From Escherichia coli (lineage in GTDB: Bacteria; Pseudomonadota; Gammaproteobacteria; Enterobacterales; Enterobacteriaceae): a stretch of 64,000 bases of DNA. Of the stretch, positions 47,416-53,141 are shown one piece after another (the stretch's first letter is position 1; each line of letters starts with the position of its first letter). Made by a program: the position numbers and the translations under genes. Below the pieces are notes generated by a model. That model was not told where the DNA came from, did no database searches, and saw nothing but the letters and a program-made list of their open reading frames with translations. Location: assembly GCF_003334765.1 (NCBI RefSeq), contig NZ_QOWT01000004.1. The stretch is one strand, 5' to 3'.

Positions 47416-49256
<1,841 letters not shown>

Positions 49257-49278: not shown

Positions 49279-49821
49279 ATGATTATCTATTTACACGGTT
49301 TTGACTCTAACAGTCCGGGTAACCACGAGAAAGTCTTACAATTGCAGTTTATTGACCCGGATGTACGCTTGATAAGCTACAGTACGCGGCATCCGAAACA
49401 TGATATGCAGCATCTGCTTAAAGAAGTGGACAAAATGTTGCAACTGAACGTTGACGAGCGTCCGCTAATTTGCGGCGTTGGCTTGGGCGGATACTGGGCG
49501 GAACGGATTGGTTTTCTTTGCGACATCCGCCAGGTGATCTTCAACCCTAATTTGTTCCCTTATGAGAACATGGAAGGCAAGATTGATCGCCCGGAAGAGT
49601 ATGCCGATATTGCCACTAAGTGTGTGACCAACTTCCGTGAGAAGAATCGCGATCGTTGCCTGGTGATTTTGTCGCGTAATGATGAAGCGCTTAACAGCCA
49701 GCGGACATCTGAAGAGTTGCATCATTATTACGAGATTGTCTGGGACGAAGAGCAGACGCACAAATTCAAGAATATCTCCCCGCATTTACAGCGCATTAAA
49801 GCGTTCAAAACCCTCGGGTAA
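49279..49821 (+). CDS. ycfP: UPF0227 alpha/beta-hydrolase-fold protein YcfP, 180 aa
   Basis: ORF 49222-49821; recognised start at internal Met [34 protein letters not shown]... Confidence 0.88.
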
Positions 49822-49822
49822 A

Positions 49823-49950
49823 TGCCCTCGTCGCATCAGGTAACCTTGCCGGTACCTGATGCGCTCCGAATTCTGTGGGTCGGATAAGGCGTCCACGCCG
49901 CATCCGACAGTCGAGCATCAATGCCTGATGCGCTTCTTATCAGGCCTACC
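49823..49950. repeat. REP/BIME cluster downstream of ycfP
   Basis: Hairpin GCATCAGGTAACCTTGCCGGTACCTGATGC, then REP-like GGGTCGGATAAGGCGTCCACGCCGCATCCGACAG and GCCTGATGCGCTTCTTATCAGGCCTAC. Confidence 0.75.
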
Positions 49951-50070
49951 GAACGCCCTGCATACACCCCTCACTCTATATCACTCTCACAAATTCGCTC
50001 AAATAATAAACAATAAACTCTGTTTTTTGATCTCACCCGGTAAAGTCGCCTATCTTTTCAGCAACAAAAC

Positions 50071-50084
50071 TTGATTAACATCAA
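50071..50084. promoter_or_regulatory. FNR binding site in the ndh promoter (perfect TTGAT-N4-ATCAA)
   Basis: TTGATTAACATCAA ~140 nt upstream of the ndh start; ndh is a well-known FNR-repressed gene. Confidence 0.8.
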
Positions 50085-50220
50085 TTTTGGTATGACCAAT
50101 GCACCATTCATGTTATTCTCAATAGCGAAGAACATTTTCATTGCTGTAACCTGTTGTTAATTAAGAGCTATGTTAATAACCATTAATTAACAATTGGTTA
50201 ATAAATTTAAGGGGGTCACG

Positions 50221-51525
50221 TTGACTACGCCATTGAAAAAGATTGTGATTGTCGGCGGCGGTGCTGGTGGGCTGGAAATGGCAACACAGCTGGGGCATAA
50301 GCTGGGACGCAAGAAAAAAGCCAAAATTACGCTGGTCGATCGTAACCACAGCCACCTGTGGAAACCGCTGCTGCACGAAGTGGCGACTGGCTCGCTTGAT
50401 GAAGGCGTCGATGCGTTGAGCTATCTGGCCCATGCGCGCAATCATGGTTTCCAGTTCCAGCTGGGTTCCGTCATTGATATTGATCGTGAAGCGAAAACAA
50501 TCACTATTGCAGAACTGCGCGACGAGAAAGGTGAACTGCTGGTTCCGGAACGTAAAATCGCCTATGACACCCTGGTAATGGCGCTGGGTAGCACCTCTAA
50601 CGATTTCAATACGCCAGGTGTCAAAGAGAACTGCATTTTCCTCGATAACCCGCACCAGGCGCGTCGCTTCCACCAGGAGATGCTGAATTTGTTCCTGAAA
50701 TACTCCGCCAACCTGGGCGCGAATGGCAAAGTGAACATTGCGATTGTCGGCGGCGGCGCGACGGGTGTAGAACTCTCCGCTGAATTGCACAACGCGGTCA
50801 AGCAACTGCACAGCTACGGTTACAAAGGCCTGACCAACGAAGCCCTGAACGTAACGCTGGTAGAAGCGGGAGAACGTATTTTGCCTGCGTTACCGCCACG
50901 TATCTCTGCTGCGGCCCACAACGAGCTAACGAAACTTGGCGTTCGCGTGCTGACGCAAACCATGGTCACCAGTGCTGATGAAGGCGGCCTGCACACTAAA
51001 GATGGCGAATATATTGAGGCTGATCTGATGGTATGGGCAGCCGGGATCAAAGCGCCAGACTTCCTGAAAGATATCGGTGGTCTTGAAACTAACCGTATCA
51101 ACCAGCTGGTGGTGGAACCGACGCTGCAAACCACCCGCGATCCAGACATTTACGCTATTGGCGACTGCGCGTCATGCCCGCGTCCGGAAGGGGGCTTTGT
51201 TCCGCCGCGTGCTCAGGCTGCACACCAGATGGCGACTTGCGCAATGAACAACATTCTGGCGCAGATGAACGGTAAGCCGCTGAAAAATTATCAGTATAAA
51301 GATCATGGTTCGCTGGTATCGCTGTCGAACTTCTCCACCGTCGGTAGCCTGATGGGTAACCTGACGCGCGGCTCAATGATGATTGAAGGACGAATTGCGC
51401 GCTTTGTATATATCTCGCTATACCGAATGCATCAGATTGCGCTGCATGGTTACTTTAAAACCGGATTAATGATGCTGGTGGGGAGTATTAACCGCGTTAT
51501 CCGTCCGCGTTTGAAGTTGCATTAA
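50221..51525 (+). CDS. ndh: Type II NADH:quinone oxidoreductase NDH-2, 434 aa, TTG start
   Basis: ORF 50194-51525; recalled protein begins (M)[53 protein letters not shown] at TTG 50221, preceded by GGGGG; two GxGxxG dinucleotide folds. Confidence 0.93.
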
Positions 51526-53123: not shown

Positions 53124-53141
53124 ATGTGATCCAGATCACAT
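53124..53141. promoter_or_regulatory. 18-bp perfect palindrome (CRP-type core) in the comR-bhsA divergent promoter region; candidate operator
   Basis: ATGTGATC-CA-GATCACAT, 8-bp perfect arms; core TGTGA-N6-TCACA equals the CRP consensus; ~68 nt upstream of bhsA ATG. Confidence 0.55.

Follow-up and report, generated by a model that had tools for sequence, protein, structure and literature searches.

The FNR operator of the ndh promoter in Escherichia coli and its probable upstream partner

The 64-kb stretch of E. coli DNA analysed here (the window) is of K-12 type, and between ycfP and ndh it holds a densely packed, conserved control region, made up of an FNR site (site I), a probable PdhR operator over the -35 region, an extended -10 element (TGtTATTCT), the transcription start site (TSS) at 50128 and a leader with downstream repressor sites (Table 1). 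In each of the 5,426 complete E. coli genomes, a match to the 600 bp around the FNR site was found, in many cases at 100%. The start of ndh at window position 50221 corresponds to 1,166,085 in NC_000913.3. Published U00096.2 coordinates were converted into window positions by subtracting 1,115,087, and the conversion was cross-checked with four FNR-like sites from Table S6 of Myers et al. (PMC3688515), whose coordinates (1,128,739, 1,128,832, 1,132,253 and 1,165,158) fall exactly on window positions 13652, 13745, 17166 and 50071. For comparison across the family, ndh loci were gathered from 80 Enterobacteriaceae species, and a strict alignment was built from 79 distinct sequences, namely the window and 78 of the 80 species loci. 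A REP/BIME-type palindromic element is also present between ycfP and the ndh promoter (49878-49946); its two strands matched the Rfam family naRNA4 (RF02564) with 56.5 and 52.5 bits, slightly missing the gathering score of 59.5.

Table 1. Features of the ndh control region and the regulated gene, in window positions
Feature	Position	Strand	Description
Probable FNR site II	50027..50040	.	TTGATCTCACCCGG; perfect left half-site, degenerate right half; centre -94.5; 44 bp upstream of site I
FNR site I	50071..50084	.	TTGATTAACATCAA; palindrome with the full consensus; centre -50.5 from the ndh TSS; 150 bp ahead of the ndh start
PdhR-type operator	50087..50099	.	TTGGTatgACCAA; perfect inverted repeat TTGGT-atg-ACCAA; overlaps the -35 region; 2 bp downstream of site I
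Extended -10 of Pndh	50111..50119	+	TG-t-TATTCT; underlies the 'second degenerate FNR site' of the first-pass annotation
ndh TSS (+1)	50128	+	1,165,992 in U00096.3; 93 nt upstream of the start codon
ndh 5' leader	50128..50220	+	93 nt; region of predicted downstream ArcA sites
ndh coding sequence	50221..51525	+	NADH:quinone oxidoreductase II; 434 aa; TTG start; regulated gene; annotation in ER1709 and MG1655

The start site of Pndh was placed at 1,165,992 in U00096.3 by in-vitro run-off RNA-seq, with more than 200 read starts, and the same study names TATTCT as its -10 (PMC10301672), which corresponds to window 50114-50119. Pndh has a poor -35 and depends on an extended -10; a generic sigma-70 scan of 49800-50260 found no promoter, and the published TSS was adopted. 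In the 79 distinct sequences, TG (50111-50112) and TATTCT are kept in at least 97%, the base between them varies, and so do the bases after about 50121. From 50146 to 50220 (+19 to +93), the leader is AT-rich and hardly varies among Enterobacteriaceae. This part contains four copies of GTTAAT, three of them direct (50156, 50172 and 50197) and one inverted (50186-50191), as well as a 25-nt imperfect inverted repeat (50147-50171 and 50176-50200). ArcA sites have been predicted at +36 to +68 of ndh, and ArcA-P represses the gene in vitro (Rolfe et al., PMC3411108). An Rfam search with the conserved leader gave no meaningful match, the best being a plant microRNA family at E = 0.98. The fold of the leader RNA is not significant (z-score -1.47), and its stem columns are invariant, so that no covariation signal is possible.

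Conservation is also high next to site I, on its downstream side. The block at 50086-50101 (TTTGGTATGACCAATG) is kept in at least 90% of the 79 distinct sequences, with most columns at 97% or more, and it encloses TTGGTatgACCAA, a hyphenated dyad of the form TTGGT-N3-ACCAA that matches the core of AATTGGTaagACCAATT, the pdh operator mapped by footprinting. PdhR represses ndh (Rolfe et al., PMC3411108), and this dyad is, judging from its sequence, most likely the PdhR operator of ndh. On the other side of site I, immediately upstream, an A-rich stretch with CAAAAC (50062-50070) is kept in at least 97% of sequences; it may represent the ArcA site predicted at -57 or a contact of the RNA polymerase alpha subunit C-terminal domain (alpha-CTD). 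The bases that precede site I read ATCAA in 27 of the 80 species (AACAA in E. coli), giving the arrangement ATCAA-AAC-TTGAT.

The first-pass annotation had reported an exact FNR consensus upstream of ndh, and this was confirmed. Read on the + strand, TTGATTAACATCAA agrees with TTGAT-N4-ATCAA at 10 of 10 consensus positions, and it is the sole exact match in the 64-kb window. Under dinucleotide shuffling, 0.11 exact matches are expected and 11 of 100 shuffled windows carried at least one, so that to find one exact match within the window is by itself only a mild surprise and amounts to weak evidence. A consensus search allowing 3 mismatches returned 313 matches, with 240 expected, and was too unspecific; we used instead a symmetrised FNR weight matrix, trained on 62 ChIP-bound sites of Myers et al. 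Table S6 (PMC3688515) from which the ndh site was left out. With this matrix, site I scored 18.97 and ranked 1 of 63,987 window positions. Its centre at 50077.5 lies at -50.5 from the TSS at 50128, the same position as given by Myers et al. (PMC3688515).

The position of site I is fixed among the species compared. The best FNR-matrix match upstream of ndh was found at the homologous position in all 80 species; in 79 of them it lies 148-151 bp ahead of the start codon, and in 77 both TTGAT and ATCAA are exact. The spacer, in turn, varies across species (TAAC, GCAC, ACAT, GTAT and others); identity to E. coli among the 79 sequences is about 20% at its first base, below 10% at the second and about 50% at the fourth, the third being invariant. 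The half-sites are thus fixed, the spacer free and the position constant relative to the promoter, and fixed half-sites around a free spacer are the signature that would be expected of a dimeric operator.

Site I is also occupied in vivo. Myers et al. 2013 (PMC3688515) list the same 14-mer at 1,165,158 of U00096.2 (window 50071), with a PatSer score of 15.88, as the predicted site under an FNR ChIP-seq peak. The centre of this peak, at 1,165,151-1,165,156, corresponds to window 50064-50069, and the peak was found by three ChIP-seq algorithms, by ChIP-chip and in an earlier ChIP-chip study (Myers et al., PMC3688515). The ChIP-chip data of Grainger et al. (PMC1802558) give an ndh peak at 1,165,181 (window 50094). 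Mapped onto the window, these published coordinates place anaerobic FNR occupancy at site I. Published data likewise record an FNR-dependent change in the expression of the adjacent ndh: the gene is classed as directly FNR-repressed, with its site at -50.5, and serves as the example of a repressed promoter, showing an anaerobic, FNR-dependent drop in both expression and sigma-70 occupancy (Myers et al., PMC3688515). Rolfe et al. 2012 (PMC3411108) also describe ndh as repressed by FNR, in addition to PdhR and, in vitro, ArcA-P. The connection that had been drawn from sequence between the motif and the anaerobic repression of ndh is therefore borne out by the ChIP peaks and by direct FNR repression from -50.5 (PMC3688515). 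Site I is the well-characterised FNR operator of the ndh promoter, already known and of textbook standing. The ndh promoter is a classic FNR-repressed promoter that has been footprinted and mutated, and site-directed mutation there reportedly abolishes both FNR binding and regulation.

Other strong FNR-like matches in the window are located at 13652-13665, 13745-13758, 17166-17179 and 53126-53139, in flgN, flgE and ycfQ/bhsA; these four are predicted sites that have no ChIP-seq peak and mostly overlap H-NS, Fis or IHF signal (Myers et al., PMC3688515). Many high-scoring FNR sites are unbound in vivo, three of them within the window, in flgN and flgE (Myers et al., PMC3688515), which shows that a match to the consensus is not in itself proof of FNR binding. 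A separate FNR ChIP peak, labelled 'ycfP' and detected at 1,164,183 by all algorithms and in the earlier ChIP-chip study (Myers et al., PMC3688515), maps to about window 49096, inside nagZ and 183 bp upstream of ycfP. Only weak FNR-like motifs are present there, the best nearby being CTGTCACCGATCAA at 49104 (matrix score 2.7).

The possibility that site I is a chance or silent consensus match, unused by FNR in vivo, is negligible: exact matches do arise in 11 of 100 shuffled windows and strong matches can stay unbound, including those at 13652, 13745 and 17166, but a ChIP peak lies on site I in two independent studies (PMC1802558, PMC3688515), repression of ndh depends on FNR (PMC3688515), and the half-sites are conserved across 80 species around a free spacer. 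The other element proposed in the first-pass annotation, a probable second and degenerate FNR site formed by a half-site pair at about 50111-50125, had to be abandoned. The string concerned, TTATTCTCAATAG, is actually located at 50113-50125; in this register, more than 4 of the 10 consensus positions are mismatched, and its matrix score of about -9 (rank about 3,300 of 63,987) is that of the background. Within 50111-50125 no FNR consensus above background was found, nor conserved half-sites, the conserved bases being those of TG-n-TATTCT, and AATAG, the remainder of TTATTCTCAATAG, is unconserved across the 79 distinct sequences. The best register nearby, 50107-50120 (TTCATGTTATTCTC), has 4 mismatches, a score of -5.1 (rank 1,356) and its centre at -14.5. 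It is identical to the reverse complement of the site I core at 11 of 13 positions, a likeness that is unconserved, and its TTCAT changes among species to TTCGT, GACGT, AACAT or CATGT; a downstream FNR site at 50107-50120 was rejected on its background matrix score and its lack of conservation. The stretch at 50111-50125 is a core promoter element, the -10, and no FNR site. It is accordingly very improbable that FNR represses ndh through site I together with a degenerate downstream site at about 50111-50125, where FNR would cover the -10 and obstruct RNA polymerase directly. FNR sites can overlap the core promoter at FNR-repressed promoters, and the register at 50107-50120 is weakly FNR-like and resembles site I in reverse complement, but scores are at background in both the annotated and the best register (-9 and -5.1), conservation follows the extended -10 and leaves TTCAT and AATAG to vary, TATTCT is the published -10 for the TSS at 50128 (PMC10301672), and Meng et al. 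1997, to go by their title, deal with 'two upstream FNR-binding sites'. The ChIP-seq peak centre at 50064-50069 is, moreover, shifted upstream of site I and not downstream, within peak-calling error. Mapped sites thus lie elsewhere than annotated for the second site only, and site I is unaffected.

The second FNR site of the literature is most likely TTGATCTCACCCGG (50027-50040), upstream of site I. Apart from site I, TTGAT occurs in the ycfP-ndh intergenic region only in this element, and no further TTGAT or ATCAA half-site is present near the promoter. The element is centred at precisely -94.5, counted from the TSS at 50128. FNR footprints at ndh are reportedly centred at -50.5 and -94.5, and we take 50027-50040 to be the latter of the two. 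In its right half, 4 of 5 positions are mismatched, and its matrix score of -6.7 (rank 1,900 of 63,987) is indistinguishable from background. Divergent E. coli lineages as well as E. albertii and E. whittamii retain TTGATCTCA, and a TTGAT at the 44-bp offset was found in 3 of 80 species, all of them Escherichia. Salmonella, Citrobacter, Klebsiella, Enterobacter and others lack site II, and no replacement for it was seen in them. When any offset from 17 to 110 bp upstream of site I was allowed in the 80 species, a second FNR-like site showed no enrichment over a coding-sequence null; in other genera, the median best score of secondary sites was -1.4, compared with -2.7 for the null, and a score of at least 5 was reached by 5%, compared with 7.8%. 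Sequences within E. coli are 96-100% identical, which is too little divergence for a conservation test of site II. The centre of the ChIP-seq peak is located 8-13 bp upstream of that of site I, a shift whose direction fits an upstream partner and whose size is within peak-calling error. Phytobacter is the exception among the other genera: Phytobacter diazotrophicus and P. ursingii, and also Kosakonia sp. S29, carry a fair FNR-like sequence, TTGTTTCATAGCAA, 45 bp upstream of the main FNR site. Its matrix score reaches 8.8 (7-9 in Phytobacter), and its spacing is near that of the E. coli -94.5 element, to which it is unrelated in sequence; it may represent an independent gain of the tandem arrangement.

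An odd allele was observed in E. coli P276M (NZ_CP044293.1), which has a unique and highly divergent patch of about 140 bp in its ndh promoter, seen in 1 of 5,426 complete E. coli genomes. The patch covers 503-640 of its locus, or approximately window 49983-50146, and the flanking ycfP and ndh are normal. In this allele, the right FNR half-site reads GGCAC and the PdhR box is missing; the -10 and the TTGAT left half-sites of both FNR sites are kept. The patch could reflect a natural loss of repression, or else an oddity of assembly or recombination.

These distributions bear on whether only site I matters. The -94.5 element would then be no real FNR site, or a dispensable addition specific to Escherichia, and the functional and conserved module would consist of one dimer at -50.5 that acts next to PdhR and the downstream repressors. 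We consider this unlikely, even though site II has four mismatches with a score of -6.7 and rank of 1,900, Myers et al. (PMC3688515) assign one FNR site to ndh, and TTGAT at the 44-bp offset occurs in just three of the 80 species, all Escherichia, other genera showing no enrichment of secondary sites. Against it, the retention of TTGATCTCA extends to divergent E. coli and to E. albertii and E. whittamii, TTGAT persists even in the otherwise rewritten P276M promoter, and Phytobacter has, independently, an FNR-like site of fair quality (score 7-9) whose offset is 45 bp. The half-site also falls exactly on the reported -94.5. By its title, the work of Meng et al. 1997 holds that repression requires two upstream sites.

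We are highly confident that the motif is FNR site I of the ndh promoter, through which FNR represses ndh from -50.5, probably together with a weaker upstream partner. In the CRP/FNR family, the activating positions are -41.5, -61.5 and so on, and -50.5 falls between them. Without oxygen, dimeric [4Fe-4S]-FNR binds TTGATTAACATCAA, centred at -50.5 and immediately upstream of the -35 region. It would be aided by a second, weaker FNR element, reported some 44 bp beyond site I at -94.5, to which we assign TTGATCTCACCCGG. FNR at -50.5 would cover the DNA on which the alpha-CTDs of RNA polymerase would dock. Recruitment of the polymerase would be weakened, with the -35 and -10 hexamers left uncovered, leading to lower occupancy and to repression of ndh. 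Exclusion of the alpha-CTD is reportedly the mechanism at ndh; we infer it here, as we do the exact identity and footprint of site II, partly from such accounts.

In its locus, 14-mer, coordinate, position at -50.5 and repression, site I is identical to the published E. coli ndh promoter (Green & Guest 1994; Meng, Green & Guest 1997; Myers et al. 2013), and it differs from it in nothing; the second site of the first-pass annotation does differ, the published one being upstream. The E. coli yfiD promoter, with FNR at -40.5 and -93.5, is similar in having tandem FNR sites of which the upstream dimer, near -93/-94, lowers transcription. At yfiD, however, the proximal FNR activates from a class II position, an activation that the upstream dimer only dampens, whereas the proximal position at ndh, -50.5, is non-activating and the net effect is repression. 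Two FNR dimers on one promoter region are also found at nrdDG, where they have been shown physically by SAXS, but nrdDG is activated by FNR and ndh is repressed. A further parallel is CRP acting at a distance (Lee & Busby 2012), where an upstream dimer of the CRP/FNR family represses through the alpha-CTD without occluding the -35 and -10. Those promoters are synthetic or semi-synthetic and CRP traps the alpha-CTD there, whereas the model recounted for ndh is displacement of the alpha-CTD from the DNA.

The main observation of the first-pass annotation is right yet textbook, and its call of a second site is wrong in position; what is new is limited to a small evolutionary refinement and the odd P276M allele. 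For a classic FNR-repressed promoter, seen in two genome-wide ChIP studies, the discovery value is small. The check does show that a real operator can be recognised from sequence alone, and that the weak second site was a core promoter element misread. The refinement of this known system is modest: site I is fixed across 80 species, as is the PdhR box beside it, and the upstream site is found in Escherichia only. It is conceivable, and we put it forward only tentatively as somewhat less probable than its opposite, that the two-site requirement of E. coli K-12 is an elaboration specific to Escherichia, and that in the Enterobacteriaceae the ancestral, widely conserved module consists of one FNR dimer at -50.5, separated by 2 bp from an invariant PdhR operator. 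If this single-site module were correct, the P276M promoter would be a natural de-repressed variant. In most genera, one site would then be enough to repress ndh without oxygen, with PdhR or the conserved leader sites perhaps playing a part, or those genera would repress ndh less tightly.
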